Below are positions 14,946 to 34,541 of a DNA stretch of 64,000 bases, piece after piece (position 1 is the stretch's first letter; every line of letters starts with the position of its first letter). A program made the position numbers and the translations under genes. Source of the stretch: Myxococcota bacterium (GTDB lineage: Bacteria; Myxococcota_A; UBA9160; UBA6930). The notes under the pieces were generated by a model, which was not told the origin of the DNA, searched no databases, and saw only the letters and a program-made list of their open reading frames with translations. Where the stretch lies: positions 4,896,001-4,960,000 of the forward strand of contig OZ245002.1 in NCBI GenBank assembly GCA_965223415.1, given 5' to 3'.

Positions 14946-15028
14946 GGGGAACGTGCCGCGCAGCGGCTCAACAGGAGGTGCGCAAATCTACGTGTCCTCT
15001 TAGCCCTCGAATATCACGTCCTGCGACA

Positions 15029-15520: not shown

Positions 15521-15599
15521 CCGCTCTGACTGGCAGGATTCGAACCCCCGACCCTTGTATCTACTCCACTCACCCGGATCTGGTTCAATAGGGTCAGAA

Positions 15600-15790
15600 C
15601 GGGTTTCGGGGGAGGGTCGCCGTCCCGACCCAGAGGCATGGTCCTCGTACCTGAGAGAGGCGCCCTCGCCCGATCTCGCAAGCTCGAACGGTATCCCGAG
15701 GCAGCGGTCTGCCGCTCGTCCTCGCATGCACAAGGAAGAGCACCGAGGTCGGCACCGAGGCTCCCGACGCTCCCGTTCGAGGAGGAAGAA
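15600..15790 (+). ncRNA. Predicted IS110 bridge RNA (also present in copies 2 and 3)
   Basis: Target loop CCCGACCC (15624-31) and ACCTGAG (15649-55); donor loop ACGGTATC (15688-95) and ACAAG (15730-34); each loop has an inner hairpin; boundaries approximate. Confidence 0.8.
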
Positions 15791-15794
15791 GGGG

Positions 15795-16970
15795 ATGCGC
15801 TTCGTTGGGATCGACATCGCCTCGGAAACGCACGTCGTCGCGATGGTGGGAGAAGACGGGGGCGTGCTGCTGAAGCCGGTCTCGTTCCGGGAGGAGGCGG
15901 CTGGCTACGCACTGCTGTGGGAGAAGCTGGGAGGCCCCGAGGACACGCTCGTAACGCTCGAGGCAACGGGGCACTACTGGAAGAACCTGTTCGCGGCGCT
16001 TGCGGCGAGGGGTTTTGCCGTGGCGTTGATCAACCCGCTGCGCAGTCGCCGGTTCGCACAAGAAGACTTGGAGCGGACGAAGACCGACGCAATCGATGCG
16101 CTCGGCCTGGCTCGCTTCGGAGCACAGAAGCGTCCGAGGGTGACTCGCCTTCCGGACGCGGCGACAGAAGAGCTTCGTGAGCTCGTCCGGCTCCGCGATC
16201 GTCTGGTTCAGGACTTCGGGGACTGCACCCGGCGGCTCCACCGCATGGTCGATCTGGGCTTCCCAGAGCTCAAACGGTACGTGAAGCACCTCGATAGCCA
16301 GCTGTCGACGGGGCTGCTGCGGGAGTACCCCACGGCAAGAGCCTTCCAGGAAGCCTCTGTGGGGCGCGTGGCAAAGCTTCGCTACGACGGTCGTCATCGT
16401 GTAGGCGATGCGCTCGCGAAGCAGCTCGTCGAGGCTGCGCAGAACTCGGTGGGCGCCCATCATGGCCCGGCCTACCAGGTGCAGGTGCGTTACCTGTGCG
16501 AAGACATGGACGTCTTGCGCAAGAGACTCGGCGACATCGACCGCGACATCGCGGATCAGCTATCCGCGCACGAGGTCGGAAGCTTGCTGACGACGATCGA
16601 TGGGATCGGGCCGACGACGGCAGCACGGCTCATCGCGGAGCTCGGTGACCCGGCCGACTTCGCCACGGCCGCAGCCCTCGCCGCCTACGTGGGCGTCGTT
16701 CCAGGCCTAAAGCAGTCGGGCAAGCGCCAAGGCAAACGCGGGAACCTCTCGCCAATCGGTCACGCGCGGCTACGTCGCGCACTGTGGATGCCGACGTTGG
16801 TCGCCGTTCGGAAGAACCCCTGGGTGCGGGCCCACTACGAGCGGCTGCGCGACAACGGCAAGCCCGCAAAGGTCGCGCTGATCGCCTCGACGAGGAAGCT
16901 GCTCATCGCGGTTCACGTCGTGGCGAGGACCCGCAAGCCCTTCGTTCCACAGCTAGAGACCAACCCATGA
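15795..16970 (+). CDS. IS110 recombinase/transposase
   Basis: FVGIDIAS, LEATGHYW, KTDAIDA (DEDD); GVVPGLKQSGK (catalytic Ser region). Confidence 0.95.
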   Translation: MRFVGIDIASETHVVAMVGEDGGVLLKPVSFREEAAGYALLWEKLGGPEDTLVTLEATGHYWKNLFAALAARGFAVALINPLRSRRFAQEDLERTKTDAIDALGLARFGAQKRPRVTRLPDAATEELRELVRLRDRLVQDFGDCTRRLHRMVDLGFPELKRYVKHLDSQLSTGLLREYPTARAFQEASVGRVAKLRYDGRHRVGDALAKQLVEAAQNSVGAHHGPAYQVQVRYLCEDMDVLRKRLGDIDRDIADQLSAHEVGSLLTTIDGIGPTTAARLIAELGDPADFATAAALAAYVGVVPGLKQSGKRQGKRGNLSPIGHARLRRALWMPTLVAVRKNPWVRAHYERLRDNGKPAKVALIASTRKLLIAVHVVARTRKPFVPQLETNP

Positions 16971-17605
16971 ACCGAGAAAACCGGGCCCAGCCCCTTGCTG
17001 AAGATCACGGTATCTCAGGTTCGAAGCCTGATGCTCGATGTCGAGCCACCGGACAGCGCACTTCGAAGAACCGCGTGCATCCAGGCGTCAAGGGTCCGAG
17101 ATCAGGCGCTCCGCGCAACAACCAAGCACGACCAAAGTGCGGAACCAAGCACCGCCAGAACGCGAATTCCTCAGCGAATCCGGCGGCTTCTGGCGGGGCG
17201 GACGGGACTCGAACCTACAACCTCCGGCTGTAAGTCCGCGGAAACGCAGGGGTCCGAAGAGGTGAAGCTTGTATCCCGTTGTATCCCAACCGGGGCACGC
17301 CGGGCCAGGTAGGGCGATGGGGCGGCGGCGGGTAGCCGCCATCCCTCGGGTCCGCGAGCGAGCCCCCTTGCCAGCGCCTCGACGTGAGCTAAATCGGCAT
17401 TGGATCGCACGCAGACATCCCGGGGTCGAGGCCAAGGCGGCGTAGCCCCGGCATGGCTCTTGCGCGCGCCTTGTTGAGGATGTCGCCCGGGTCCGGGTGA
17501 GCTTCGCGTCCCCGCACTGCGGGGGCACGCATCTCCATCTCTTCAGGGCGCCACCGGTCCGCGATCGCGGCGCCCTGTCCCCTCGGCCGGGCGACGTGGG
17601 CCGGC

Positions 17606-18886
17606 TTGCGCGTCTTCTCCGTCTCGCTCTCGCTGCTCGTCGCCGTCGGGCTCTCGCTCGCAGGCAACGGCCTCCTCGGTACGCTGTCGGCACTTCGCCT
17701 CGCCGACGCAGCCCTGCCCGACGAACTGACCGGCCTCGTCCTCGCGGCGTACTTCGCAGGCCTCATGGCCGGCACGCTCGGGCTCGGGAGGACAGTGGCT
17801 CGGGTCGGTCACATCCGGTCCTTCGCGGCCTTCACGGCACTCGCCGTGTTCGCGGCGCTCGCCCAGGGCCTCACCTCGCCGGGCATGCTCTGGCTTCCGC
17901 TTCGGGCGATGACCGGACTGTGCATGGCCGGGACCTACCTGACCGTCGAGTCCTGGCTCCACGCGGAGGCCGGCCCGGAGAGCCGCGGCCGTGTGCTGGC
18001 CGCCTATCTCGTCGCACTCTACCTGGGTACCGGGGCCGGTCAGCTCCTGCTGCCGCTCGCGCCTACCGAGACCCTCGACGCGTTCGCGCTGGCTGCCCTG
18101 CTGACGAGCCTCGCAGTGGTCCCGGTCTGTCTGACGCGCGTTTCTGCACCTCGCCTCGAGCAAGCGGCGACCAGGGCGACCTCCGGGCTCGTGCGCGACG
18201 CGCCCCTCGGGCTCGGCGGGGCCCTCGTCTCGGGATTCGTCGCGGGCACCATCTACGCGAACGCACCGCTCCTTGGGCGCGCGACCGGCATGGAGTCGAC
18301 CGACGTTGCCGGCCTGATGGCCGCCTTCTTCGCGGGCGGCCTCGCCGGACAATGGCCGCTCGGCCGGCTTTCGGACCGCATGGATCGTCGGCTCGTTCTC
18401 TTGGGGGCGATGTTGGGTCTCGCTGGGCTCTGCGCCGCGTTCCTCTTAGTGGCCGCCACGCCTTCCACCATCTGGTGGGCGCTCGCCTTCGCGTTCGGCG
18501 CCCTGGCCTTTGCCCTCTACCCGCTGGCCGTGGCGCACACCATCGACCGGGTGGGTGCGAATCACTCGCTCCCGGCAACGAGTCAGCTCCTGCTGGCTTC
18601 GTCGATCGGCGCGTTCTCGGCACCGGTGCTCGTCGGCGCGGCGAGCCCCTGGCTCGGTGCTTCCGCGTTCCTCCAGCTCGACGCGCTGCTTCTGGTCGGC
18701 TTCAGCCTCGCGGCCTCGCTGCGGATCCTCCGTGTCGATCCGGTCCGCCAGGGTCCGTTCCAGCCCATGGCGAGGACGACACAAGCGGCGCACGAGCTCG
18801 ATCCGCGCCACAGCGGTGACGCTTCATCCCCCGGGCACCAAGCCTCGGTTCCCGCTCGACCCGCGACGGTCGGAGACACCCCATGA
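17606..18886 (+). CDS. MFS transporter (YcaD-like)
   Basis: ~12 TM segments, RVGHIRSFA, ESWL, GRLSDRMDRR. Confidence 0.85.
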   Translation: MRVFSVSLSLLVAVGLSLAGNGLLGTLSALRLADAALPDELTGLVLAAYFAGLMAGTLGLGRTVARVGHIRSFAAFTALAVFAALAQGLTSPGMLWLPLRAMTGLCMAGTYLTVESWLHAEAGPESRGRVLAAYLVALYLGTGAGQLLLPLAPTETLDAFALAALLTSLAVVPVCLTRVSAPRLEQAATRATSGLVRDAPLGLGGALVSGFVAGTIYANAPLLGRATGMESTDVAGLMAAFFAGGLAGQWPLGRLSDRMDRRLVLLGAMLGLAGLCAAFLLVAATPSTIWWALAFAFGALAFALYPLAVAHTIDRVGANHSLPATSQLLLASSIGAFSAPVLVGAASPWLGASAFLQLDALLLVGFSLAASLRILRVDPVRQGPFQPMARTTQAAHELDPRHSGDASSPGHQASVPARPATVGDTP

Positions 18887-18944
18887 AGAACCGCCGGCCC
18901 GGCGACATCCCCCTCAGCCAGATTGCGAGCGCGAGGGCGGCAGC

Positions 18945-20132
18945 GTGAAGCTCGCCATCCTCTCGAGAGAACCGCGGAGCTACAGCACGCGCCGCCTGAA
19001 GGAAGCCGCGCGGGAGCGCGGCCATCGGGCCCGCGTACTCGATCCGACGCTGTTCTCGATCGAAGTCGCGAGCGGGAACCCACACCTCTACTACAGAGGG
19101 CGCGCGCTGGAGCGTTTCGACGCGGTGATCCCGCGTATCGGCGCCTCCATCACCTTCTTCGGAACGGCGGTCGTGCGTCAGTTCGAACAGATGGGCGTGT
19201 TCTGCGTGAACACGTCCACGGCCATCTCGACGTCGCGCGACAAGCTCCGGGCGCTCCAGATCCTGAGCCGGCACCACGTCGGCATCCCGAAGACGTCCTT
19301 CGTTCGCGAGAAGAACGCGATGCTCGAAACGGTGGAGCGGATGAAGGGCCCGCCGGTCATCGTGAAGTTGCTGGAAGGGAGTCAAGGTCTGGGTGTGATC
19401 CTCGCCGAGACGAAGAAGTCCGCGGAGGCGATCGTCGAAACGCTCCAGTTTGCGACGGGCAACAATGTCCTCATCCAGGAATTCGTGGCCGAGTCGCGCG
19501 GCCGCGACATCCGCGCCTTCGTTGTCGACGGCCGGGTCGTCGCGGCCATGCGGAGAACGGCGCAGGAGAGCGAGTTCCGGAGCAACGTCCATCGCGGCGG
19601 GCTGGCCGACGCGGTGGAGCTCGATCCTGTGTACGAGCGCACCGCCATCCACGCTGCCCAGATCCTCGGGCTCCGGGTCGCCGGCGTGGACATGCTCGAG
19701 GGCGCCGATGGCCCGATGCTGATGGAGGTGAACTCGTCGCCCGGCCTCGAGGGCATCGAAGGGGCGACTGGCGTCGACATCGCGGCGACCATTCTCGAGA
19801 TGATCGAAGATCAGGTGCTCTTCCCCGAGATCGACATCCGGCAGCGACTCACACTGCAGAGCGGGTACGGCGTGCTCGAGATCCCGATCGACCGCGGGTC
19901 CGAGCTGTGCGGGCGGACGATTCGCGAGTCCGGTCTGAAGGGTCGGGACGTCCTCGTCCTCCAGATCCAGCGTGGCAGCGTCACGATCCCCAACCCGAAG
20001 ACGAGCCGGGAGATCCTGGCTGGCGACGTGCTGCTCTGTTTCGGCAAGACGTTGACCCTCCGCACCCTGGCGCCGGCACCGCGACGTCGCAATCGGCGTC
20101 GCGGCTCGGCCGTGGGGGCCGCCGATGGCTGA
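18945..20132 (+). CDS. rimK: RimK-family alpha-L-glutamate ligase with C-terminal TrkA-C domain
   Basis: KLAILSR..YSTRRL, DAVIPRIGAS, FRSNVHRGG, EVNSSPGLEGIE. Confidence 0.85.
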   Translation: MKLAILSREPRSYSTRRLKEAARERGHRARVLDPTLFSIEVASGNPHLYYRGRALERFDAVIPRIGASITFFGTAVVRQFEQMGVFCVNTSTAISTSRDKLRALQILSRHHVGIPKTSFVREKNAMLETVERMKGPPVIVKLLEGSQGLGVILAETKKSAEAIVETLQFATGNNVLIQEFVAESRGRDIRAFVVDGRVVAAMRRTAQESEFRSNVHRGGLADAVELDPVYERTAIHAAQILGLRVAGVDMLEGADGPMLMEVNSSPGLEGIEGATGVDIAATILEMIEDQVLFPEIDIRQRLTLQSGYGVLEIPIDRGSELCGRTIRESGLKGRDVLVLQIQRGSVTIPNPKTSREILAGDVLLCFGKTLTLRTLAPAPRRRNRRRGSAVGAADG

Positions 20133-21156
20133 ATGCGTCGAGATCGCGGGAGAGACGATTCGGCGCGGGGAACGTCGGCGAATCCAGATCCCGCTGGCGC
20201 TGCGGCCGACACAGGCCGAGGTCTCGATGTCCGCGGAGGTCATCTGCGGGGCCCGGGACGGGCCGCAGCTCTTCGTGTGCGCCGGCATTCATGGGGACGA
20301 GATCAACGGGGTCGAGATCATCCGGCGCGTGTTGCGCCGCTCGTTCCGGGGGCTTCGGGGGACGCTCCTGGCGGTTCCGATCGTGAACGTCCACGGATTC
20401 GTGGCCCACAGCCGAACCCTGCCCGACCGGAGGGATCTGAACCGCGCCTTCCCGGGCTCGCCCCGAGGATCGCTCGCGGCGCGGCTTGCGCACCAGTTCA
20501 TGGAGAACGTGGTCAAGGCTTCGACGCATGGCATCGATCTCCACACGGCGGCGATCCACCGGGAGAACCTCCCGCAGATCCGCGCCTGCCTCGACGACTC
20601 CGAGACCGAAGAGCTCGCGCGAGCGTTCGGTACGCCCGTTCTGCTCAACTCCGACCTGCGCGACGGGTCGCTCCGCGAGGCGGGACAGGAGCACGGGGTT
20701 CCGGTCCTCGTCTACGAGGGCGGCGAGGCGCTGCGATACAACGAGGCCGCCATCCGCGCCGGCGTGCGCGGGGTGCTTCGCGTGATGCGCCAGCTCAGGA
20801 TGCTCCCGGATGCGGGCGATCGGGGTCGTATCATCGAGCCGTTCGTCGCCCGCAGCAGTGCCTGGGTACGTGCGCCCGAAAGCGGGCTGCTGCGGGTCCG
20901 CGCCAAGCTCGGTGCTCGCGTCAAGAAGGGGTTCGTCCTCGGCGTCATCTCCGACCCGCTGGGCACGGAGGATACGACCGTCAGCGCGAGCCGCGCCGGA
21001 ATCGTGGTGGGCCGCACGCGTCTTCCCGTCGTGAACGAGGGCGATGCACTCTTCCATGTCGCGAGCTTTGACGCGGTGCAATCCGTGGCGCGGGAGGTCG
21101 AGTCCTTCCACGATGAGCTGTTTGATTCCGGCGTTTCGCCCCCCATGGCGGACTGA
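20125..21156 (+). CDS. Succinylglutamate desuccinylase/aspartoacylase family (M14-like)
   Basis: GIHGDEING, DLNRAFPG, IDLHT. Confidence 0.9.
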   Translation: MAECVEIAGETIRRGERRRIQIPLALRPTQAEVSMSAEVICGARDGPQLFVCAGIHGDEINGVEIIRRVLRRSFRGLRGTLLAVPIVNVHGFVAHSRTLPDRRDLNRAFPGSPRGSLAARLAHQFMENVVKASTHGIDLHTAAIHRENLPQIRACLDDSETEELARAFGTPVLLNSDLRDGSLREAGQEHGVPVLVYEGGEALRYNEAAIRAGVRGVLRVMRQLRMLPDAGDRGRIIEPFVARSSAWVRAPESGLLRVRAKLGARVKKGFVLGVISDPLGTEDTTVSASRAGIVVGRTRLPVVNEGDALFHVASFDAVQSVAREVESFHDELFDSGVSPPMAD

Positions 21157-21170
21157 GAAGGAGCAGATCG

Positions 21171-22361
21171 ATGCGCGGTTGGATCCTCGACGGCAAGCCC
21201 GTCCCGGACCCCTCACTCGAAGGCTACGAAGTTCGTCGGTTCCTGGAGGTCGGCGAGAGAGTCGGCATCGATGTCGACCTGGTCACGCCCGAGCAGCTCG
21301 ATCTCGTGGTGACGAGCAGTGGCCGCCCGAGCATCGCGCGGAACGGCAGATCCGTTCCGCTCCCCGACTTCCTGCTTCCGCGCATGGGTGCTTACACGAC
21401 CTACTTCGGGCTTGCCGTGATCCGGCACCTGGAACGCCTGGGAGTGCTGACGGTCAACTCGGCCGAGAGCATCGACACCGTGAAGGACAAGCTCTTCACC
21501 CACCAGATCCTCGCTCAGAACGAGCTGCCGATCGCGCGAACGATGCTCGCCAAACATCCGCTCGACGTCGCCTTCGTGGAGAAAGAGATCGGATTCCCGG
21601 TCGTCGTGAAGACGATCACCGGATCCCAGGGGGCCGGTGTCTTCCTTTGCGAGGATCGTCACCACTTCGAGGATCTGATGGAGCTCGTTCTCGCCGCGCG
21701 CAGCAACGCGAACCTGATCCTCCAGGAGTACGTGGCCTCGAGTCGAGGGCGCGATCTCCGCGTGTTCACGGTCGGCGGCCGCGCCGTGGCCGCGATGGAA
21801 CGTTCTTCGCAGGACGGCTCGTTCAAGGCGAATGTCTCGAGGGGCGGACGGGCCACCGCCTACTCGTTGGACGCCGAGAGCGAGTGGCTGGCGCTCGAAG
21901 TCACGCGCTTGCTGGGTCTCGACGTGGCGGGGATCGATCTGCTCTTCGACGGCGACCACTACCTCGTCTGCGAGGCGAACTCGTCGCCCGGTTTCCGCGG
22001 TCTCGAGTCGTGCTGCGCCGTCAGCATCCCGCACGAGATCCTGCGCTTTGCTGCGCTCCGCCTCGGTCGCCACGACGTCGCCGACCGGCTCGAGGTGGAT
22101 CTCGCGGAGTCGTTCGGCGACCCGCCGGTCGGCGTTGCGAGCACATGGTCCAACGCGCACTGTGCGGTGAGCGCTAGCGGCACCAGCGACGCAGAGCGCG
22201 CGCTCGCCGAGGTGGGCGCGGTCAAGGGCCAGGGTGGCTGCATGGCGATCGATGGGCGGGGTCGCATCACGACGGTCCTGAACAGCCCGCAGATGGTGCG
22301 AGCATCGCTCGTCGAGGGCGAGCCCATGCGTCTCGGGATCTGGACGGATGACGATGCGTGA
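21171..22361 (+). CDS. Second RimK-family ATP-grasp ligase with C-terminal extension
   Basis: LPRMG, GSQGAGV, FKANVSRGG, CEANSSPGF. Confidence 0.85.
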   Translation: MRGWILDGKPVPDPSLEGYEVRRFLEVGERVGIDVDLVTPEQLDLVVTSSGRPSIARNGRSVPLPDFLLPRMGAYTTYFGLAVIRHLERLGVLTVNSAESIDTVKDKLFTHQILAQNELPIARTMLAKHPLDVAFVEKEIGFPVVVKTITGSQGAGVFLCEDRHHFEDLMELVLAARSNANLILQEYVASSRGRDLRVFTVGGRAVAAMERSSQDGSFKANVSRGGRATAYSLDAESEWLALEVTRLLGLDVAGIDLLFDGDHYLVCEANSSPGFRGLESCCAVSIPHEILRFAALRLGRHDVADRLEVDLAESFGDPPVGVASTWSNAHCAVSASGTSDAERALAEVGAVKGQGGCMAIDGRGRITTVLNSPQMVRASLVEGEPMRLGIWTDDDA

Positions 22362-22765: not shown

Positions 22766-22847
22766 CGGCCGCTCCGGAACCCCTCAGGCCGCGCGGGGCG
22801 TCCGTTGCACGGAGGCCTTCACCCCGCGTGCATGGAAACGGGGCACC

Positions 22848-23140
22848 ACCCCCAGGTTCGAAGCCTGGTGCTCAACCTCGCTCCGCGCGGACACGAGCGC
22901 GCGTGTCGGCGAAGCTGGAACCCGCTTGGTTCCCGGATGTATCCCGCGCGCGTCGCGGCTCGACAACCGCTGCTCGCGCGTGGACTTACGCGCGAAGCGT
23001 GCGGGTTCCGAGAAACCCGAAAAGCTGAATGAAATCAGCTTGATGGCGGGGCGGACGGGACTCGAACCTACAACCTCCGGCTGTAACCTCCCGGAAACAC
23101 AGGGGTCCGAAGAGATGAAGCTTGTATCCCGTTGTATCCC
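22848..23140 (-). repeat. Junction repeat J2
   Basis: acccccaggttcgaagcctggtgctc (22848-73); tRNA-Asp-like half 23044-23086; ttgtatcccgttgtatccc 23122-23140. Confidence 0.85.
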
Positions 23141-23258
23141 GACTTCGCCGGATCGCCATCGGGATGCTTGGCCACCGGCCTTCCGCCAGGACCGAGCCCG
23201 TGCGGAGCCGTGTGGCGCGCGCCTTGCCGTCATGACTGAATCCAACTATCGTACGTAC

Positions 23259-23875: not shown

Positions 23876-23917
23876 TCGGGCCCAGCGCACGGGTGATTCG
23901 CTTGCCCCAACGCAGGC

Positions 23918-24190
23918 GACTCGAACCCCCGACCCCCCGGTTCGAAGCCTGATGCTCAACCCCGTGCGGCGAGTCGCGTGGATGCAGGCGTCAGGAGTCC
24001 GAGATCAGGCGCTCGCCGCGACAACCAAACGCAACCAAAGGCCGGAACCAAGCACCGCCAGAATGCGAATTCCCCTGCGAATCCGGCTACTTCTGGCGGG
24101 GCGGACGGGACTCGAACCTACAACCTCCGGCTGTAACTCCGCGGAAACGCAGGGGTCCAGGGAGCTGAAGCTGGTATCCCGTTGTATCCC
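23918..24190 (-). repeat. Junction repeat J3 (most complete uninterrupted copy)
   Basis: gactcgaacccccgaccccccggttcgaagcctgatgctc; accaa repeats; tRNA-Asp-like half 24094-24136; gtatccc x2. Confidence 0.9.
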
Positions 24191-24241
24191 GACCTCCGAT
24201 CGCGCTCCGACATCTGATAGCCAATTGGCTATTATTCGAGC

Positions 24242-25076: not shown

Positions 25077-25104
25077 CCGCGACCTGGGACTCGAACCCCC
25101 AACC

Positions 25105-26566
25105 CTTGTATCTACTCCACTCACCCGGATCTGGTTCAATAGGGTCAGAACGGGTTTCGGGGGAGGGTCGCCGTCCCGACCCAGAGGCATGGTCCTCGTA
25201 CCTGAGAGAGGCGCCCTCGCCCGATCTCGCAAGCTCGAACGGTATCCCGAGGCAGCGGTCTGCCGCTCGTCCTCGCATGCACAAGGAAGAGCACCGAGGT
25301 CGGCACCGAGGCTCCCGACGCTCCCGTTCGAGGAGGAAGAAGGGGATGCGCTTCGTTGGGATCGACATCGCCTCGGAAACGCACGTCGTCGCGATGGTGG
25401 GAGAAGACGGGGGCGTGCTGCTGAAGCCGGTCTCGTTCCGGGAGGAGGCGGCTGGCTACGCACTGCTGTGGGAGAAGCTGGGAGGCCCCGAGGACACGCT
25501 CGTAACGCTCGAGGCAACGGGGCACTACTGGAAGAACCTGTTCGCGGCGCTTGCGGCGAGGGGTTTTGCCGTGGCGTTGATCAACCCGCTGCGCAGTCGC
25601 CGGTTCGCACAAGAAGACTTGGAGCGGACGAAGACCGACGCAATCGATGCGCTCGGCCTGGCTCGCTTCGGAGCACAGAAGCGTCCGAGGGTGACTCGCC
25701 TTCCGGACGCGGCGACAGAAGAGCTTCGTGAGCTCGTCCGGCTCCGCGATCGTCTGGTTCAGGACTTCGGGGACTGCACCCGGCGGCTCCACCGCATGGT
25801 CGATCTGGGCTTCCCAGAGCTCAAACGGTACGTGAAGCACCTCGATAGCCAGCTGTCGACGGGGCTGCTGCGGGAGTACCCCACGGCAAGAGCCTTCCAG
25901 GAAGCCTCTGTGGGGCGCGTGGCAAAGCTTCGCTACGACGGTCGTCATCGTGTAGGCGATGCGCTCGCGAAGCAGCTCGTCGAGGCTGCGCAGAACTCGG
26001 TGGGCGCCCATCATGGCCCGGCCTACCAGGTGCAGGTGCGTTACCTGTGCGAAGACATGGACGTCTTGCGCAAGAGACTCGGCGACATCGACCGCGACAT
26101 CGCGGATCAGCTATCCGCGCACGAGGTCGGAAGCTTGCTGACGACGATCGATGGGATCGGGCCGACGACGGCAGCACGGCTCATCGCGGAGCTCGGTGAC
26201 CCGGCCGACTTCGCCACGGCCGCAGCCCTCGCCGCCTACGTGGGCGTCGTTCCAGGCCTAAAGCAGTCGGGCAAGCGCCAAGGCAAACGCGGGAACCTCT
26301 CGCCAATCGGTCACGCGCGGCTACGTCGCGCACTGTGGATGCCGACGTTGGTCGCCGTTCGGAAGAACCCCTGGGTGCGGGCCCACTACGAGCGGCTGCG
26401 CGACAACGGCAAGCCCGCAAAGGTCGCGCTGATCGCCTCGACGAGGAAGCTGCTCATCGCGGTTCACGTCGTGGCGAGGACCCGCAAGCCCTTCGTTCCA
26501 CAGCTAGAGACCAACCCATGAACCGAGAAAACCGGGCCCAGCCCCTTGCTGAAGATCACGGTATCT
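25105..26566 (+). mobile_element. IS110-family element copy 2
   Basis: Same sequence as copy 1; CT cores at 25105-06 and 26565-66. Confidence 0.95.
25346..26521 (+). CDS. IS110 recombinase/transposase
   Basis: Protein identical to copy 1. Confidence 0.95.
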   Translation: MRFVGIDIASETHVVAMVGEDGGVLLKPVSFREEAAGYALLWEKLGGPEDTLVTLEATGHYWKNLFAALAARGFAVALINPLRSRRFAQEDLERTKTDAIDALGLARFGAQKRPRVTRLPDAATEELRELVRLRDRLVQDFGDCTRRLHRMVDLGFPELKRYVKHLDSQLSTGLLREYPTARAFQEASVGRVAKLRYDGRHRVGDALAKQLVEAAQNSVGAHHGPAYQVQVRYLCEDMDVLRKRLGDIDRDIADQLSAHEVGSLLTTIDGIGPTTAARLIAELGDPADFATAAALAAYVGVVPGLKQSGKRQGKRGNLSPIGHARLRRALWMPTLVAVRKNPWVRAHYERLRDNGKPAKVALIASTRKLLIAVHVVARTRKPFVPQLETNP

Positions 26567-26887
26567 CAGGTTCGAAGCCTGGTGCACAAGCCGGTTCAGA
26601 GAGGCTCGCGGATGCAGGCGTCAGGGGTCCGAGATCAGGCGCTCGCCGCGACAACCGAGCGCGACCAAAGAGCGGAACAAACCGCTGCCAGAGCGCGAAG
26701 CGAAAAGCTGAATGAAATCAGCTAGACGGCGGGGCGGACGGGCTCGAACGCGCGGAGCCCGGCGATAAGGGCCCGGAATCGTGAGGGTTTTCCTCGCCGG
26801 TGCTCAAGCTGTGCTCAAGGAAGCCTCGGAGGCCAGGCCGGCGGGATCGTGTTGTTGGAGTACGGTCCTGACGATATGGTTACCCGT

Positions 26888-27133
26888 ATGAAGACGACAG
26901 TCGAGATTCCGGATCCGCTGGCCGACGAAGCCAAGGCCGTCGCGCAGCGCGACAAGACCACGCTTCGCGAGCTCATCGAGACGGGACTTCGACTGGTGCT
27001 TCGAGAGCGACGGCGCAAGACCCGCTTTCGCCTTTGCGACGCCAGCTTCCGAGGACGCGGGCTTCAGCCGGAGTACCAGGACGAAGACTGGCAGCGGATT
27101 CGAAACGCTGCCTACAAGGGCCGCGGCGGTTGA
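26888..27133 (+). CDS. VapB-like RHH antitoxin (DUF2191-like)
   Basis: MKTTVEIPDPL..AKAVA..TTLRELIETGLR. Confidence 0.85.
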   Translation: MKTTVEIPDPLADEAKAVAQRDKTTLRELIETGLRLVLRERRRKTRFRLCDASFRGRGLQPEYQDEDWQRIRNAAYKGRGG

Positions 27134-27564
27134 TCGCCGTCGACACGAATCTCCTCGTCTACGCCCACCGCGCAGAATCCGATTGGCACGGTCGAGCTGC
27201 GGCATGCGTTCGCGAGCTCGCAGACGCGAGAGCGCCGTGGGCCATCCCGTGGCCATGCATCCACGAGTTCCTCGCCATCGCGACCCATCCCAGGATCTGG
27301 GACCCGCCCTCGCCCACGGAGGCGGCGCTCGACCAGGTCGAAGCCTGGATCGAATCGCCCGGGCTGGTCTTGCTCGCGGAGGGCGCGGATCACTGGAGCG
27401 AGCTTCGCGGCCTGGTCGAGGCCAGTCGCATCGTGGGGCCGCGGGTCCACGACGCGCGCATCGCAGCTCTTTGCCGCGCGCATGGCGTACGCGAACTATG
27501 GACAGCGGACCGCGACTTCAGCCGGTTCTCGAGCCTCGTCACGGTGAACCCGCTGACTCGCTAG
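27130..27564 (+). CDS. vapC: VapC/PIN-domain toxin
   Basis: IAVDTNLLVYA, HDARIAAL, TADRDF. Confidence 0.9.
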   Translation: MIAVDTNLLVYAHRAESDWHGRAAACVRELADARAPWAIPWPCIHEFLAIATHPRIWDPPSPTEAALDQVEAWIESPGLVLLAEGADHWSELRGLVEASRIVGPRVHDARIAALCRAHGVRELWTADRDFSRFSSLVTVNPLTR

Positions 27565-27589
27565 CCGGGGCATCGCACGCTGCAACAGG

Positions 27590-27796
27590 CGATCCCCAAC
27601 CCTCGGGGTTGGAGCCCAACCAGGCGCTCGTGGCGACAACCGAGCACGACCAAAGCGCGGAACCAAGCGCCGCCAGAACGCGAATTCCTCAGCGAATCCG
27701 GCGGCTCGTGGCGGGTCGGACGGGACTCGAACCTACAACCCCCGGCCGTAACCCCTCGGAAACGCAAGGGTTCGTAGGACTGCAGCTTGTATCCCG
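27590..27796 (-). repeat. Junction repeat J5 (degenerate Arg half, conserved spacer and Asp-like half)
   Basis: caggcgctc..acaaccgagcacgaccaaagcgcggaaccaag..; tggcgggtcggacgggactcgaacctacaacc 27709-51. Confidence 0.85.
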
Positions 27797-27840
27797 CCAT
27801 CGCCCCGCCCTCCCTGGGCCTTGCGCCCGGGCTTGGGCCA

Positions 27841-27882
27841 ATAACCCAAGAATAAGGTTATAAAACCTATTATTTGGGTTAT
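27841..27882. promoter_or_regulatory. AT-rich inverted repeat, likely promoter/operator of the downstream pair
   Basis: ATAACCCAA...TTGGGTTAT with inner AATAAGGTT/AACCTATT arms. Confidence 0.7.
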
Positions 27883-27914
27883 ACTTCACGCCGGAATCGA
27901 CGGGTGGACCCAGC

Positions 27915-28247
27915 ATGCTCGAAGGCATCTTCGGAAACGCCAGCGCGGAAAAGGTCCTCCTCTATCTGGAGCAGTACGAGGAAGGGTACGCGACGGCGAT
28001 GGCTCGAACTTTCGACGACCTCTCGCTGAACATGGCCCAGCGGCAGCTCGAGCGGTTCGAGCGGGCCGGTGCGCTTGTGAGCTCACTCCGAGGCCGAACC
28101 CGCCTCTACACATGGAATCCTCGCTACCCGTTTCGCCGGGAGCTGCGGGCCCTGCTTCGCAAGGCCCTCGACCAACTGCCCGCCTCCGAGCGGAAGCGCT
28201 ACTTCACCGAGCGCAGACGGCCGCGCCGTGCGGGCAAGCCACTGTGA
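27915..28247 (+). CDS. Winged-HTH protein (putative antitoxin/regulator)
   Basis: EKVLLYL..YATAMARTF..AQRQLERFERAG..GRTRLY. Confidence 0.8.
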   Translation: MLEGIFGNASAEKVLLYLEQYEEGYATAMARTFDDLSLNMAQRQLERFERAGALVSSLRGRTRLYTWNPRYPFRRELRALLRKALDQLPASERKRYFTERRRPRRAGKPL

Positions 28248-28795
28248 ACGCGCAGCATCGGATCGACGAGGACACCTCCCTCGAGGAGGTCGCCGCTCTC
28301 GTCTGCACGACCCTCGAGGCGCACGGCATCTCGGTCGTGCTCTCCGGCGGCGCCGTCGTCTCGATCTACTCCGACGCCGAATACGTCTCCTACGACCTGG
28401 ACTTCATCCCGATCGGACTCGCTCGGAAAGTCGATGGCGCCATGGAGTCACTCGGCTTCGAGAAGCGGCAGCGCCACTGGACGCATCACCGAAGCCGGTA
28501 CTGGGTCGAGTTCCCTCCCGGCCCCGTCGCCATCGGGGAAGAGACGATTCGCAGCTTTGCGGAACGCGAGACCCGGGCAGGGACCCTGCGCCTCCTCGCT
28601 CCGACCGAGTGCGTGATGGATCGGCTGGCCTGGTATTTCCATGACGCGGACACGCAGTGCCTCGAGCAGGCGGTTCGTGTTGCGACGCTCCAGCCGGTGG
28701 ACCTGAAGCGCATCGAACGGTGGGCGCGCGGCGAAGGGCCTCGTGGCGAGGAGCGATTTCGGGAGTTCGAGCGGAGGCTGCACGAGAAGAAATGA
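28244..28795 (+). CDS. Nucleotidyltransferase-fold protein (putative toxin)
   Basis: VLSGGAVVSIYS..SYDLDF; GTGA overlap with the wHTH gene. Confidence 0.75.
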   Translation: MNAQHRIDEDTSLEEVAALVCTTLEAHGISVVLSGGAVVSIYSDAEYVSYDLDFIPIGLARKVDGAMESLGFEKRQRHWTHHRSRYWVEFPPGPVAIGEETIRSFAERETRAGTLRLLAPTECVMDRLAWYFHDADTQCLEQAVRVATLQPVDLKRIERWARGEGPRGEERFREFERRLHEKK

Positions 28796-28816
28796 CGCGG
28801 ACTTGCGCGTCGTCGC

Positions 28817-29047
28817 GGTGCAGGGGGGTGCAATAGGGTGCAGGGAGGTGTCGTTTCGACGGCACCGAACCGCGGGACGGCACCATACAGAGCGCGAACG
28901 GGTAGGTTCCGGACCTGCCCGAGCGGGATTCGAACCCCCGACCCCCAGGTTCGAAGCCTGAACGGACCCGTAGGAAATCCAAATGGTTGCGCGATTCCGA
29001 GCGGGAATGAACGGGAATACGCGGGAATACGGGCACAAAATGGTCAC
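28817..29047 (-). repeat. Junction repeat J6 (GGTG x4, tRNA-Arg(UCG) half, GGGAAT x3)
   Basis: gggattcgaacccccgacccccaggttcgaagcctg 28925-60; flanking repeats phased at 10 bp. Confidence 0.85.
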
Positions 29048-29209
29048 GCGAGAGAGAGCGTTCCGGGACCTTACTCGATGACCCTTTTGCGCGGCGACTC
29101 GGCGTGAGTCACGCCTCGGAGCGAGAGTCCTGGCCGATGATTCACGGGTGCCGCACGGCGAAGAAGGCGAGGCCCGGCCGAGCAGTAAGTAAGGCGTTGG
29201 TACGGTCCC

Positions 29210-29674
29210 CTATCCGTCCCGGGACTTCGAACGCACTTGCTCGAAGGCCTTCTTGATATGTGGCGAACTGTCCGCGCGAACCTGCGGAACGCCTTCCTGC
29301 AGTTGTATCCAGCCCGGGAGATGGTCCTCGACCCCGAAATAGAACGAAGGGGACTCGATCTCGAGCGGCTCATCCAGCGTGCCGATAAAGATGCTCTCGA
29401 GGTTGCTCATGTCCCCGGTCGCATAGCTGTGCCCGATGTGCGTCCCACACTCCGGACAGAAGTGCCTCTCGAGAATTGGTGAGGTCATGAACCGGGCCGG
29501 TTCCCCCTTCGTGAACCGGAAGCTGTCGAGATCGAAGAAGGCGCCCGTTCCTGCAGCCATCCCCGTCCAACGCTGGCACATCCGGCAATGGCACATGCCG
29601 GTCGTGACGGGCGATTCCGTCGATTCATATCGGATCGCCCCACAGTAACAGCCCCCGGAGAATGTTCTGGGCAT
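29210..29674 (-). CDS. GFA/CENP-V family Zn protein
   Basis: GGCYCGAIRY, CHCRMCQR, FCPECG. Confidence 0.9.
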   Translation of the reverse strand: MPRTFSGGCYCGAIRYESTESPVTTGMCHCRMCQRWTGMAAGTGAFFDLDSFRFTKGEPARFMTSPILERHFCPECGTHIGHSYATGDMSNLESIFIGTLDEPLEIESPSFYFGVEDHLPGWIQLQEGVPQVRADSSPHIKKAFEQVRSKSRDG

Positions 29675-29862
29675 GGCTCTCCCCGATGCGACGTCTATTC
29701 GTAAGTCCTCGTCCATTGTCGCCTCTGCACCGGCAGCCTGTCCACCGGGGTTGCTTCTCACGCACTGATGGTTCGGACGAGGCCTTCCTCGGCGTGCGGA
29801 GATGAGTCACCGCGGGCGGGTGCCGAATCCCTTCGGACCTCGGTGACGGGTTGGTCATCGCT

Positions 29863-30522
29863 TCAGGAGCTTGGTCCCTCCTCGTAGTCGAGCGCATCGC
29901 GCGCCCGCTCGGCGATCGCTTCGTACACCGAGCGCGCCCAGGCCTCCTTCTCGTCATCGAGCTCGATGGTCTCCCAGTCTGAGACCGCCGCCTGGGCCCA
30001 CTCCCCCCACTCGCCGAGCGCGGTCGCCAAACGCGCGACCAGCTCGGCCACGAGCGCCGCCGTGTGGATCCGCTCGGGCACCGCGAAACCGTCTTCCAGC
30101 AGCGCCTCGGTCCCCGCGACGGCCTGGTGCAGCCACTCGGACCGACGTTGCCGCCCGCGCGCGAGCGTCTCGCGAAGCTGTTCGATGTCGCTGGCGGTCG
30201 CGTAGGCAATCTTGAGCGCGAACTCGAGTTCGAACGAGGCGGGGGGCGCCGGAACCGAGAGCCAGTGCGCGAGAGCGCGACGGCCGGCCGGCGTGATGCG
30301 ATACACGGTGCGCTCGCGTGCTCCCGAGCGCTCCTTGCGGCTCTTCGCGTAGCCCGCTGCCTCGAGGTCCTTGGGCGCCTGATAGATCTTGCTCTCGGCT
30401 CGCGGCCAGACGAAGCGGAGATTGCTGCTGGTCTTCATGTGGCGCGCGAGCTCGTAGGCGGACCAGGGGCGCGCGGCGAGCAGGCCGAGGATCGCGTAGG
30501 CGTTCGGACTCAGGTCGGGCAT
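29863..30522 (-). CDS. PadR-family transcriptional regulator
   Basis: YAILGLLA.RPWSAYEL, SKIYQ..LE..GY, YRITPAGRRAL. Confidence 0.9.
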   Translation of the reverse strand: MPDLSPNAYAILGLLAARPWSAYELARHMKTSSNLRFVWPRAESKIYQAPKDLEAAGYAKSRKERSGARERTVYRITPAGRRALAHWLSVPAPPASFELEFALKIAYATASDIEQLRETLARGRQRRSEWLHQAVAGTEALLEDGFAVPERIHTAALVAELVARLATALGEWGEWAQAAVSDWETIELDDEKEAWARSVYEAIAERARDALDYEEGPSS

Positions 30523-30532
30523 CGCAGAAATA

Positions 30533-30575
30533 TACTCCCTTAGGGAGTAATCTGTGTATACTCCCAATGGAAGCA
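30533..30575. promoter_or_regulatory. Palindromic operator(s) in a divergent promoter
   Basis: TACTCCCT-T-AGGGAGTA perfect palindrome at 30533-49 plus an imperfect second copy. Confidence 0.7.
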
Positions 30576-30606
30576 GATCTTCCAGCCCTCCGAGGAGGCG
30601 ACTGCG

Positions 30607-32070
30607 ATGACGAGCCCCGAGTCGATGATCCCGCCCGCCGTGGGCGATTATGAGGTCGACCGCCAGCGCCATTGCGCAGCGATGGGCGCGGGTCTTGGCG
30701 AGGAGGTCGCCCGGCTCGGTGCCGGCCCGGTCGAGATCGCCCGGATCCGGGACGAGCGCCTGCGCGGCCTGCTGGCCCACGCCCGCACTCACTCGCCGTG
30801 GCATCGCGAGCGCCTCGCCGGGCTCGAGGTCGACCGTATCTCTGCGGCCGACGTGAGCGCGCTGCCCTCCATGACGAAGGCCGACCTCATGGAGTACTGG
30901 GACGAGATCGTCTGCGACCCGCAGCTCGACCTGAAGCAGGTCGAGGCCCACATCGAACGCATCGCACACGACGGTCCGTCTTACCTGCACGACCGGTACC
31001 ACGCGCTCGCGACGGGCGGGTCGACGGGCAGGCGGGCCGTCGTCGTCTGGGACTTCGACGGCTTCAGGATCACCGGAACACGCTCGCCGGCGTGGAGCCT
31101 GTCGTGTAGCGTGCACCTGGGTCTGCCGACATCGTTGCCGATCGTCGCCTGCATCGTCGCGTCCAAGGGCGCGACACACCTCGGCGGCGCGGTGAACGCC
31201 TGCTTCTCCAACCCCGAGAGGGCAACCTACGTCTCGGTCGCCGCGTCCCAGCCGATGGAAGAGATCGTCCGGATCCTCGAGGAGGCGCAGCCGGTCGTCC
31301 TCAGCGGCTACGCGTCGACGCTGCAGCAGCTCGCGGAGCTGAAGCTCGCCGGTCGCCTCGATATCGCGCCGGCCCAGGTTGTCCAGGGAGGCGAGCCCTT
31401 CCTTCCCGAGGCGCGCGCCGCGGTCGACGCCGGCTTCGGATGTCCCGTACGCGACCAATGGGGAGCGTCGGAGATCGGCTGGGGCGGCTCGTCGTTCCCC
31501 GGGACGGAAGGCATCGTGCTCTGCGAGGATCTCGTGACCGTCGAGCCTGTCGATGGCGACGGGCGCCCTGTCGGCCTCGGTGAGCCGGCCGCGAAGCTGT
31601 TCGTCACCAACCTCGTCAACCGCGTGCTGCCGGTCATCCGCTACGAGATCAGCGACGAAGCGACGATGGTCGCCCCCGATCCCGACTGCCCCTGGACGGG
31701 GCATCGCCTCCTCGCGATTGAGGGCCGACGGGACGACGTGTTCACGTACGGCGATCGCACGGTCCATCCCCACGCGTTTCGCAGCGTGCTCACGACCCAC
31801 GGAGCCATCGCCGAGTACCAGGTGCGACAGACCGAGCACGGAGCCGATGTCGACGTCGTCGGAGCCGCACCCGGCGCGTGTGATGCGCTCGAAGGGTCGA
31901 TCGCGGGCGCGCTCGCCCGCGCGGGCCTCGACTCGCCCCTCGTCCGCGTCACGCCGGTCGAGTCGATCCCACGCCAGCCGAATAGCCACAAGCTGAGGCG
32001 CTTCGTTCCGCTCTCCCGACCGAACGCCTCCGGGGCGCCAGACAGTCGTTCTCGGAGAGACTGCGGATGA
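30607..32070 (+). CDS. Phenylacetate-CoA ligase family (adenylate-forming) protein
   Basis: ATGGSTG P-loop, WGASE, IRYEISD, GRRDD. Confidence 0.85.
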   Translation: MTSPESMIPPAVGDYEVDRQRHCAAMGAGLGEEVARLGAGPVEIARIRDERLRGLLAHARTHSPWHRERLAGLEVDRISAADVSALPSMTKADLMEYWDEIVCDPQLDLKQVEAHIERIAHDGPSYLHDRYHALATGGSTGRRAVVVWDFDGFRITGTRSPAWSLSCSVHLGLPTSLPIVACIVASKGATHLGGAVNACFSNPERATYVSVAASQPMEEIVRILEEAQPVVLSGYASTLQQLAELKLAGRLDIAPAQVVQGGEPFLPEARAAVDAGFGCPVRDQWGASEIGWGGSSFPGTEGIVLCEDLVTVEPVDGDGRPVGLGEPAAKLFVTNLVNRVLPVIRYEISDEATMVAPDPDCPWTGHRLLAIEGRRDDVFTYGDRTVHPHAFRSVLTTHGAIAEYQVRQTEHGADVDVVGAAPGACDALEGSIAGALARAGLDSPLVRVTPVESIPRQPNSHKLRRFVPLSRPNASGAPDSRSRRDCG

Positions 32071-32987
32071 CGGACACGACCACAGCCCTCGCCGAGCACC
32101 TCTTCTACCCCGTCTTCGTGTACGGGCGGGGCATCCTCATCTTCTGGCTCTGCGTTGCGTTCGGCGCCGACAACCCGCAGCTGTTGCCACTGCTGATGCT
32201 GGCCTTCCTGATCGGCAGCCTCGCGATCCTGGCCGTTGCAGAGCGCCTGCTTCCCTACCGGACCGACTGGCTCGAATCCGGCGACCCACAGATCTGGAAC
32301 GACGTGGGCCACTCGTTCGTCTACCTGGTGGTGGGGACGCGTCTCGGCCAGATCCTCGTGCTCTCCACCGCCATCGCGCTCGTGGGCAGCGCCGAGGCGC
32401 GGCTCTGGACGGGCGTGTGGCCCGACGCCTGGCCGCTCGGCGCCCAGATCGCGCTCGTGATCGTCCTAGGCGACGTGCTCGAGTACGGGTACCACCGGCT
32501 CTCGCATACCCTCTCGTGGATGTGGCCGATCCACGTGCTGCACCACACGCCGGACCGCATCCACGCGCTCAAGACGTACCGGCACCACTGGCTCTACTCG
32601 CTGCTACGAAGCCTCTTCGTGGGCCTGCCCCTCATGCTCGCGGGCGCACCACTGGGCATGCTGGTCTGGCCCGCAGTGGCGATCTCCATCGTCGGGTCGA
32701 TCTCACACGCCAACGTCCGTCTTAGGATGAGCCCCTTCTGGTACCGCGTGCTCAACACGCCGGAGCTCCACCGTATCCACCACTCCGTCGATCCCGCGCA
32801 CCACAACGCCAACTACTGCTTTGTGCTGCCGATCTGGGACCTCCTCTTCGGCACCTTCGTCGCACCCGAGCAGACGACGGTCCGTACTACCGGTCTCACC
32901 GACGATCCCGTTCCCAACGGCTTCCTGCGCCAGCTCGCCCTGCCACTGACCCTTCGACGCGAGAATACCTCCGAGATAGATCACTAG
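32067..32987 (+). CDS. Sterol desaturase/fatty acid hydroxylase family
   Basis: YHRLSH, HVLHH, HRIHH His boxes. Confidence 0.9.
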   Translation: MTDTTTALAEHLFYPVFVYGRGILIFWLCVAFGADNPQLLPLLMLAFLIGSLAILAVAERLLPYRTDWLESGDPQIWNDVGHSFVYLVVGTRLGQILVLSTAIALVGSAEARLWTGVWPDAWPLGAQIALVIVLGDVLEYGYHRLSHTLSWMWPIHVLHHTPDRIHALKTYRHHWLYSLLRSLFVGLPLMLAGAPLGMLVWPAVAISIVGSISHANVRLRMSPFWYRVLNTPELHRIHHSVDPAHHNANYCFVLPIWDLLFGTFVAPEQTTVRTTGLTDDPVPNGFLRQLALPLTLRRENTSEIDH

Positions 32988-33079
32988 GGCGGCGTGGGGT
33001 CGTACTCCATGAGGTGGCGCGTGCGTGCTCGGTGTGTGCGGACTCACTGGCACGCCGGGAGGGATTCGAACCCCCGACC

Positions 33080-34541
33080 CTTGTATCTACTCCACTCACC
33101 CGGATCTGGTTCAATAGGGTCAGAACGGGTTTCGGGGGAGGGTCGCCGTCCCGACCCAGAGGCATGGTCCTCGTACCTGAGAGAGGCGCCCTCGCCCGAT
33201 CTCGCAAGCTCGAACGGTATCCCGAGGCAGCGGTCTGCCGCTCGTCCTCGCATGCACAAGGAAGAGCACCGAGGTCGGCACCGAGGCTCCCGACGCTCCC
33301 GTTCGAGGAGGAAGAAGGGGATGCGCTTCGTTGGGATCGACATCGCCTCGGAAACGCACGTCGTCGCGATGGTGGGAGAAGACGGGGGCGTGCTGCTGAA
33401 GCCGGTCTCGTTCCGGGAGGAGGCGGCTGGCTACGCACTGCTGTGGGAGAAGCTGGGAGGCCCCGAGGACACGCTCGTAACGCTCGAGGCAACGGGGCAC
33501 TACTGGAAGAACCTGTTCGCGGCGCTTGCGGCGAGGGGTTTTGCCGTGGCGTTGATCAACCCGCTGCGCAGTCGCCGGTTCGCACAAGAAGACTTGGAGC
33601 GGACGAAGACCGACGCAATCGATGCGCTCGGCCTGGCTCGCTTCGGAGCACAGAAGCGTCCGAGGGTGACTCGCCTTCCGGACGCGGCGACAGAAGAGCT
33701 TCGTGAGCTCGTCCGGCTCCGCGATCGTCTGGTTCAGGACTTCGGGGACTGCACCCGGCGGCTCCACCGCATGGTCGATCTGGGCTTCCCAGAGCTCAAA
33801 CGGTACGTGAAGCACCTCGATAGCCAGCTGTCGACGGGGCTGCTGCGGGAGTACCCCACGGCAAGAGCCTTCCAGGAAGCCTCTGTGGGGCGCGTGGCAA
33901 AGCTTCGCTACGACGGTCGTCATCGTGTAGGCGATGCGCTCGCGAAGCAGCTCGTCGAGGCTGCGCAGAACTCGGTGGGCGCCCATCATGGCCCGGCCTA
34001 CCAGGTGCAGGTGCGTTACCTGTGCGAAGACATGGACGTCTTGCGCAAGAGACTCGGCGACATCGACCGCGACATCGCGGATCAGCTATCCGCGCACGAG
34101 GTCGGAAGCTTGCTGACGACGATCGATGGGATCGGGCCGACGACGGCAGCACGGCTCATCGCGGAGCTCGGTGACCCGGCCGACTTCGCCACGGCCGCAG
34201 CCCTCGCCGCCTACGTGGGCGTCGTTCCAGGCCTAAAGCAGTCGGGCAAGCGCCAAGGCAAACGCGGGAACCTCTCGCCAATCGGTCACGCGCGGCTACG
34301 TCGCGCACTGTGGATGCCGACGTTGGTCGCCGTTCGGAAGAACCCCTGGGTGCGGGCCCACTACGAGCGGCTGCGCGACAACGGCAAGCCCGCAAAGGTC
34401 GCGCTGATCGCCTCGACGAGGAAGCTGCTCATCGCGGTTCACGTCGTGGCGAGGACCCGCAAGCCCTTCGTTCCACAGCTAGAGACCAACCCATGAACCG
34501 AGAAAACCGGGCCCAGCCCCTTGCTGAAGATCACGGTATCT
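33080..34541 (+). mobile_element. IS110-family element copy 3
   Basis: Same sequence as copy 1; CT cores at 33080-81 and 34540-41. Confidence 0.95.
33321..34496 (+). CDS. IS110 recombinase/transposase
   Basis: Protein identical to copy 1. Confidence 0.95.
   Translation: MRFVGIDIASETHVVAMVGEDGGVLLKPVSFREEAAGYALLWEKLGGPEDTLVTLEATGHYWKNLFAALAARGFAVALINPLRSRRFAQEDLERTKTDAIDALGLARFGAQKRPRVTRLPDAATEELRELVRLRDRLVQDFGDCTRRLHRMVDLGFPELKRYVKHLDSQLSTGLLREYPTARAFQEASVGRVAKLRYDGRHRVGDALAKQLVEAAQNSVGAHHGPAYQVQVRYLCEDMDVLRKRLGDIDRDIADQLSAHEVGSLLTTIDGIGPTTAARLIAELGDPADFATAAALAAYVGVVPGLKQSGKRQGKRGNLSPIGHARLRRALWMPTLVAVRKNPWVRAHYERLRDNGKPAKVALIASTRKLLIAVHVVARTRKPFVPQLETNP

Follow-up and report, generated by a model that had tools for sequence, protein, structure and literature searches.

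The stretch of DNA analysed here, hereafter the window, comprises 64,000 nucleotides of a Myxococcota bacterium (assembly GCA_965223415.1, contig OZ245002.1, positions 4,896,001 to 4,960,000) and carries three copies of an insertion sequence (IS) of the IS110 family. All three lie on the + strand inside a repeat of ~35 bp, which occurs in seven copies at cassette boundaries within 19 kb. Three of these junctions are filled by the IS and four are empty, and we refer to them as J1 to J7. Copy 1 occupies J1 (15554-17015; 1,462 bp including the CT at both ends), copy 2 occupies J4 (25105-26566; 0 differences from copy 1 over 1,462 bp) and copy 3 occupies J7 (33080-34541; byte-identical to copy 1). 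Self-BLAST found no fourth copy in the window.

Each copy starts CT-TGTATC and ends GGTAT-CT, with CT at six of six junction cores. The left flank reads ...GA(T/C)TCGAACCCCC(G/A)ACC and the right flank CAGGTTCGAAGCCTG; deleting the IS together with one CT yields the restored target ACC-CT-CAGGTTCG. The two halves of the target repeat lie at 15537-15553 and 17016-17031 for J1, at 25088-25104 and 26567-26582 for J4, and at 33063-33079 and 34542-34557 for J7, all on the + strand. The left half resembles the T loop, T stem and variable loop of a tRNA whose sense strand is the - strand. Between J1 and J7, identity runs past the IS copies into the target repeat, for 18 nt on the left and 15 nt on the right. 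At J4 the 17-nt left half differs from J1/J7 at two bases, and its left arm, CCCAACC, carries a G>A change that leaves a G:T wobble with the left guide of the RNA discussed below. A preliminary description of this DNA had reported three identical copies that share insertion base and orientation, a restored ACC-CT target and a single left-arm change at J4, all of which the junction alignment bears out. That one repeat was entered three times at its homologous base cannot be put down to chance.

The recombinase gene (15795-16970, 25346-26521 and 33321-34496, all +) is intact in all three copies and encodes 391 aa. The product matches PF01548 (DEDD_Tnp_IS110; 1-155 of 155, E=5.8e-36) and PF02371 (Transposase_20; 2-87 of 87, E=1.8e-27), which upholds the earlier assignment to the IS110 family. 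Noncoding DNA extends for 241 nt upstream of the gene and 45 nt downstream. Terminal or subterminal inverted repeats were not found when the left end was compared with the reverse complement of the right end, the best alignment giving 16/40 identities. The IS110 subgroup is described as having its noncoding region upstream of the gene and ends without inverted repeats (PMC11187229); the element shows both features, together with the two-domain protein, a two-loop bridge RNA and CT junctions. From its sequence, this is probably an active or recently active IS of the IS110 subgroup, with a bridge RNA-guided DEDD/serine recombinase whose target is chosen by the guides. The element and its recombinase are of a kind already known; the tRNA-derived target is new.

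Relatives were drawn from a protein scan of species-representative genomes, which confirmed 135; the best 80 of these, at 54-71% protein identity, were retained. The relatives come mostly from metagenome-assembled Myxococcota, Burkholderiales, Casimicrobiaceae and Acetobacteraceae. Closer relatives of the recombinase, at 86-99% identity, were seen as proteins on short contigs, and a near-mode search of the IS DNA against plasmids gave no match.

The core of the bridge RNA, with one target-binding and one donor-binding internal loop, lies at 15608-15765 (+) in the 241-nt left end. Its fold was assessed by covariation in 40 of the 80 relatives, namely those with both ends recognisable (CTTGTA[TA][CG] ... 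GG[TAC]ATCT) and flanks of at least 9 and at least 6 nt; the remaining 40 loci were left out because the end motif was missing or the contig end was reached. RNAalifold, applied to 41 left ends (the 40 relatives plus the window), gave 42 pairs, 20 of them with compensatory change. Paired cells on this fold amounted to 97.2%, against 38.0-47.8% with the partners slid by 1-3 columns, and none of 500 shuffles attained any of five observed measures. The predicted RNA's pair of internal loops, with a hairpin closing each, are the architecture published for IS621.

Both loops carry recognisable guides. The left target guide CCCGACCCA (15624-15632, +) agrees at 8 of 9 positions with the left target and the first base of the core; its final base is an unpaired A, opposite the position of the core T. 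The right target guide ACCUGAG (15649-15655, +) is the reverse complement of CT+CAGGT at all 7 of 7 positions. The target loop specifies CCCGACC+C on the left and CT+CAGGT on the right, and because the last base of the left guide is unpaired, only the A of the right guide reads the core T on the RNA side. In the second loop, the left donor guide ACGGUAUCC (15688-15696, +) matches the right end of the IS, ACGGTATCT, while the right donor guide AUGCACAAG (15726-15734, +) pairs discontiguously, as AU..ACAAG, with CTTGTAT of the left end.

These assignments are consistent with how guides and flanks vary among the relatives. The right-guide block, on the 3' side of loop 1, matches the right flank at RT3, RT4 and RT5 in 37, 36 and 32 of the 40, against means of 16.5, 14.2 and 18.7 for shuffled guide/flank pairings. 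RT1, RT2 and the core are invariant among the 40 relatives and hence uninformative for covariation. In loop 2, the base after ACAAG pairs with the final base of the left target in 37 of 40 (27.4 when shuffled), which is the 'handshake' described in print. Furthermore, the left donor guide tracks the variable base of the IS right end in 41 of 41 sequences, and the right donor guide (AU or UU, two bases skipped, then ACAAG) tracks the seventh base of the left end (T/A), again in 41 of 41.

The site that the guides specify lies inside a segment of ~35 bp from the middle of tRNA-Arg(UCG). Read on the - strand, the repeat gives the anticodon arm (UCG), the variable loop and the T arm of tRNA-Arg, and at J7 the left flank continues on that strand through the T stem, an acceptor-like 7-mer, G and CCA. 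A 51-mer across J6 is 80-87% identical to annotated phage tRNA genes, and tRNA-Arg accounts for 8 of the 25 best matches. ARAGORN found no tRNA-Arg in the window as assembled; once the IS was removed in silico it called a 72-nt tRNA-Arg(tcg) at J1, in which two acceptor positions are unpaired, the D stem has only 3 bp and the T stem is weak. An intact tRNA-Arg(UCG) gene, which the preliminary description had named as a further target, is absent from the window. An Rfam scan of 13000-37000 returned nothing at E<=1, the bridge RNA and the tRNA-like pieces included, and ARAGORN, run on 60 of the 80 relatives' loci, gave no tRNA-Arg(UCG) there. From these sequences, the repeat is tRNA-derived and probably not a functional tRNA gene. 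A limited literature search found no publications on IS110 elements that target tRNA genes, which does not imply that the habit is unpublished.

Complementarity to the bridge RNA, core included, fits occupancy at all seven junctions. The filled sites J1 and J7 have 0 hard mismatches and 0 wobbles, and filled J4 has 0 hard mismatches and one wobble, the G:T pair in its left arm. Every empty site has at least one hard mismatch. J6 (28927-28961, core 28944-5, +; CCCGACC CC CAGGT) has one and no wobbles: it equals the restored J1 across 35 nt, and the sole difference is the core T>C. J3 (23918-23952, core 23935-6, +; CCCGACC CC CCGGT) has two, at the core and RT2, and J2 (22844-22868, core 22851-2, +; CACCACC CC CAGGT) has three, two in the left arm and one in the core, both again without wobbles. 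J5 (27595-27608, core 27602-3, +; CCCAACC CT CGGGG) combines one hard mismatch, at RT5, with two wobbles, at LT4 and RT2.

The preliminary description had tied occupancy to the CT core. It described the empty sites correctly (a CC core at J2, J3 and J6; CT with a diverged right arm at J5), and its claim is sound in that a core T>C change should disfavour insertion, with the A of the right guide opposite the T and a T that in IS621 is almost invariant and read by the protein. The claim is not supported as a rule for the whole locus: J6 is the sole clean test, J2 and J3 carry other mismatches, and J5 is an empty CT site. The statement that occupancy tracks the core fits six sites and is confounded at two of them. 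In numbers, the filled sites are three CT and no CC, and the empty sites one CT and three CC (one-sided Fisher p=0.114), and the CT at the filled sites is partly contributed by the IS itself. Scanning the window with the 14-nt restored target gave 26 matches at <=3 mismatches, where 14.6 were expected. At <=2 mismatches the only matches were J6 (one), J3 (two) and 53961-53974 (-), an empty CT-core site outside the array with two mismatches and unrelated to the repeat.

The published accounts of IS621 suggest how the guides might produce this pattern. In them, pairing of the RNA with both strands of a CT core is described as strongly preferred, and non-CT cores as less efficient even with both guide loops altered to match (PMC11208160). 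The second core base, T, is described as almost invariant and as touching a main-chain amide in the RuvC domain, the left guide is reported to contain a natural G:T pair, and the top strands are cleaved 3' of the core T and exchanged first (PMC11208158). The donor-binding loop of the window element specifies the element's own joined ends, ACGGTAT-CT-TGTAT. By analogy with IS621, the T>C change at J6, J2 and J3 would remove the pair with the guide A, remove the base that the recombinase reads and create a mismatch with the CT of the donor core, and the change at J4 would belong to the tolerated wobble class. Under a top-strand-first scheme the top strand of the left junction would carry the target's own core; because the three left junctions read target-left plus CT, the targets would have been CT before insertion, unless repair overwrote them. 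The element probably filled each repeat copy whose pairing with the guides includes no hard mismatch (J1, J7 and, via one wobble, J4) and passed over the copies with one to three of them. The earlier suggestion that CC variants escape is what the IS621 literature predicts. Since in IS621 both the guide and the protein read the core T, such escape is expected rather than new, and the locus confirms known rules without amounting to a discovery.

Several observations weigh against this account. The CT/CC split alone is not significant at n=7, with all sites in one window, and the core is isolated at J6 only. J5 is empty despite its CT core, a left arm like the one tolerated at J4, and a single hard mismatch at RT5, which is the least constrained guide position (matched in 32 of the 40 relatives); RT2, by comparison, is A in 40 of 40 relatives and G at J5. 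RT2 may have a role that goes beyond pairing; otherwise occupancy is in part a matter of chance and some usable sites stay unfilled. The left target guide ends in A rather than U, where most relatives have CU, and its covariation is weaker, with at least 7 of 9 matches in 15 of the 40 relatives when the better of two registers is taken. Neither the same target guides nor the same site occur in the loci of the best 80 relatives (0 true matches in 926,077 bases). No sigma-70-like hexamer pair (16-18 nt spacing, <=2 mismatches each) spans the joined ends, and the same scan gave none at the integrated left junctions. Finally, the single-sequence fold of the bridge RNA region is no better than shuffles (z=-0.82), a test that is uninformative at such a G+C content. 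Within 15608-15632, the conserved stem strand GGGUCG lies just upstream of the left target guide and can pair with its CGACCC; because of this complementarity the single-sequence minimum-energy fold puts the guide in the stem, where it is no longer open. Separately, 11 loose pattern matches to the target across the relatives' loci proved to be unrelated sequences and were rejected.

The repeats separate small, mostly co-oriented cassettes. These comprise an MFS/RimK/AstE-like/RimK operon, a MazE-like/Doc pair, an Xre/DUF6036 pair, a VapB/PIN pair, an HTH/nucleotidyltransferase-like pair whose second gene is 81% identical to 15021-15506, and a mixed-strand cassette with GFA, PadR and a fatty-acid hydroxylase. 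An 85-nt ARAGORN call, 'tRNA-?(SeC|Leu)' with a two-base anticodon (27085-27169, -), falls inside the VapB/PIN coding region and was set aside as a probable false positive.

A conserved module, at most ~280 nt long, follows J1, J3, J4 (truncated) and J5 on the right, with copies that are 83-93% identical (17016-17291, 23935-24196, 26567-26749 and 27604-27809, and also 23018-23146). The module contains a ~130-nt spacer and a block that on the - strand looks like the T loop-to-CCA end of a second tRNA, although its T stem does not pair. Rfam gave no match to it, and a distant-mode search of 23900-24200 against plasmids was likewise negative. The 8-mer CTTGTATC, which forms the first eight bases of the IS (the right-donor half-site), occurs six times in the window against 0.28 expected, and three of these lie in junction modules (17268-17275, 23121-23128 and 27786-27793) and share the strand of the IS; in the J3 module its place is taken by CTGGTATC. 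These three copies belong to one repeat family and count as one independent event. Judged by sequence, they could be what is left of the end of a related IS, or else a half-match site.

A 201-aa open reading frame at 12186-12791 (+) contains only the N-terminal arm-binding domain of a P4-type integrase and is probably a truncated integrase gene. An rve/Mu-transposase-C transposase gene (13659-14945, -) adjoins this fragment, and the first cassette (15021-15506) is also shortened on the integrase side. No integron integrase was found, the sole integrase signal being the 201-aa P4-type fragment, and a scan reaching 150 nt from each of the four empty junctions gave no attC signature of the R''/R' consensus type. 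Right of J6 and J7 stand three CGGGAAT direct repeats at 10-bp spacing, followed by CGGGCA (~28990-29035 and ~34585-34630), and the junction modules carry GGGATACAA twice on the - strand; both kinds of repeat look like arm-type sites for an integrase or excisionase. Overall, the sequence of the locus looks like that of a decayed tRNA-associated island built by repeated site-specific integration. Also right of the array is an IS21-type pair (35687-38060, -; IstA-like, 541 aa, and IstB-like, 341 aa), bounded by inverted repeats of ~70 nt at 80% identity (35608-35677 / 38062-38132). A composite transposon formed by two flanking IS21-type elements was considered and rejected, the shared match being only 45 nt. 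Beyond the IS21-type pair, 39580-41456 (-) carries neighbouring genes for an AAA_21/AAA_15 ATPase (399 aa) and for a DUF4276 protein (219 aa); together they are a candidate defence module of this island.

Readings other than guide-directed choice of target have to be weighed against this background. History and small numbers are an unlikely explanation: the IS would use CC sites too, the T would come from the IS, and the empty sites would simply not have been filled yet. The p value of 0.114 and the empty CT site at J5 suit such a reading, as does the fact that each filled junction necessarily has donor-derived CT on at least one side. Among the 40 loci examined, relatives also leave good targets empty nearby, one locus (L013) having one perfect site and another (L001) three near-perfect tandem targets at 60-bp spacing downstream of the IS. 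Against it are CT at all six junction cores and the A of the right guide opposite the core T, as well as the IS621 model, as described, in which the top strand of the left junction is the target core and the T is nearly invariant in the family (PMC11208158), and in which non-CT cores are less efficient even with matched guides (PMC11208160). Highly improbable, in our view, is that the copies are not independent and arose by duplication, gene conversion, recombination between junctions or an artefact of assembly or polishing. The copies are indeed 100% identical, with the J1/J7 identity running on into both flanks, and the pairing of left with right flanks rests on one assembled sequence; yet identity stops exactly at the edges of the target repeat with unique cassette DNA beyond on both sides, the two differences in the left half at J4 set it apart from J1/J7, and no additional IS copies would result from site-specific recombination at a junction that carries one.

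Two further readings concern the array itself. The cassettes might form an 'expanded IS110 locus', in which the bridge recombinase brought in or shuffles the cassettes and the repeats are products or substrates of the IS. Three direct IS copies do bracket cargo, the window has an excess of CTTGTATC half-sites, three of them within junction modules on the IS strand, and one-sided donor matches at internal boundaries and partial circles are described for expanded IS110 loci (preprint 10.64898/2026.08.14.744561). We nonetheless consider this very unlikely: the module copies of the half-site are a single independent occurrence, the right boundaries of the cassettes carry target-left sequence without a left-donor match, and the truncated P4-type integrase and the 10-bp-spaced direct repeats by J6 and J7 point to a tyrosine-recombinase origin. 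It is also unlikely, as a combined proposal, that the locus represents an undescribed integron-like cassette system built on tRNA fragments, with a truncated P4-type integrase, an IS110 element retargeted to its sites, and IS copies that act as a second, RNA-guided excision engine. If true, the three direct IS copies would be able to cut out the cassettes between them and mobilise these as partial circles.

Of the systems described to date, IS621 and the IS110 subgroup show the same two protein domains, an upstream noncoding region and CT at both junctions (PMC11208160, PMC11208158). The published descriptions of IS621 likewise give a two-loop RNA with left and right guides, discontiguous right-donor pairing, a handshake base and a tolerated left-guide G:T wobble. 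The right target guide of IS621 has four bases as described, whereas that of the window element has 7 nt; the left guide of the window element has A rather than U at the second core base, and its target is a tRNA-derived repeat. Its closest relatives in the genome scan are 54-71% identical.

The earlier comparison with IS1111-attC elements is fair as an analogy, and IS110/IS1111 relatives that target attC or REP sequences have been described (PMC11187229). Members of the IS1111-attC group (ISKpn4, ISPst6) are likewise ISs with DEDD transposases that insert repeatedly in short repeats between cassettes, as the same source describes (PMC11187229); they differ in having a downstream noncoding region, 11-13-bp subterminal inverted repeats and a true attC target, none of which is seen here. 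ISPa11, ISPpu9 and ISPpu10 are likewise described as identical copies at one position of a hairpin-forming intergenic repeat (PMC11187229, PMC12288879, preprint 10.64898/2026.03.19.712850). The hairpin of the window repeat is anticodon-stem-like and starts at the core T. REP-targeting elements use a genome-wide repeat as described, in contrast to the window repeat, which is tRNA-derived and tied to cassette boundaries. Among the 40 relatives, nine from different metagenome-assembled genomes (L001, L002, L016, L019, L028, L029, L063, L066 and L073) share one repeat-like, G+C-rich left flank ending ...GCGGCG|CT|CAT or similar. In islands formed by the accretion of cis-mobilisable elements, or tycheposons, integrase-less islets stand in tandem with partial-tRNA repeats between them and an integrase gene at one end. 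The window array likewise has toxin-antitoxin and small-operon cassettes, tRNA-fragment separators and an integrase gene at one end. It differs in that its repeat is the middle of the tRNA, from the D-stem side to the T loop, where islet arrays use the 3' end; in the second, tRNA-3'-end-like block ~175 nt away in the module; and in the truncation of the integrase. Expanded, cargo-carrying IS110 loci, as described, likewise have direct copies with cargo between them, no target immunity and an internal motif like a donor half-site, and differ in that donor half-matches bound their cargo, whereas the cargo in the window is bounded by intact target-type repeats (preprint 10.64898/2026.08.14.744561).

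The preliminary description had further proposed that the IS uses the repeats as safe havens and may lock cassettes in place. Insertion in a noncoding repeat does spare genes and is the usual habit of the family. Locking is doubtful, because identical direct repeats are substrates for homologous deletion and for partial circles; the copies in the window stand in direct orientation, separated by 9,551 and 7,975 bp, and identical IS110 copies are described as substrates for partial circles from half-matching boundaries (preprint 10.64898/2026.08.14.744561). Identical direct copies of 1.46 kb more likely destabilise the array. Only if the junctions act as att sites would it be plausible that the IS puts such a site out of use.

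The locus leaves the picture of IS110 target choice unchanged, and the tRNA-fragment cassette array may be its more original feature. What it adds for the family is a new natural pair of guide and target, from a source genome of 69% G+C, and, for a bridge recombinase, a natural allelic series on a small scale: seven copies of one repeat, with zero to three mismatches to the guide. These copies are ready test targets: the core T is addressed by J1 against J6, the G:T wobble by J4, and RT2 and RT5 by J5.

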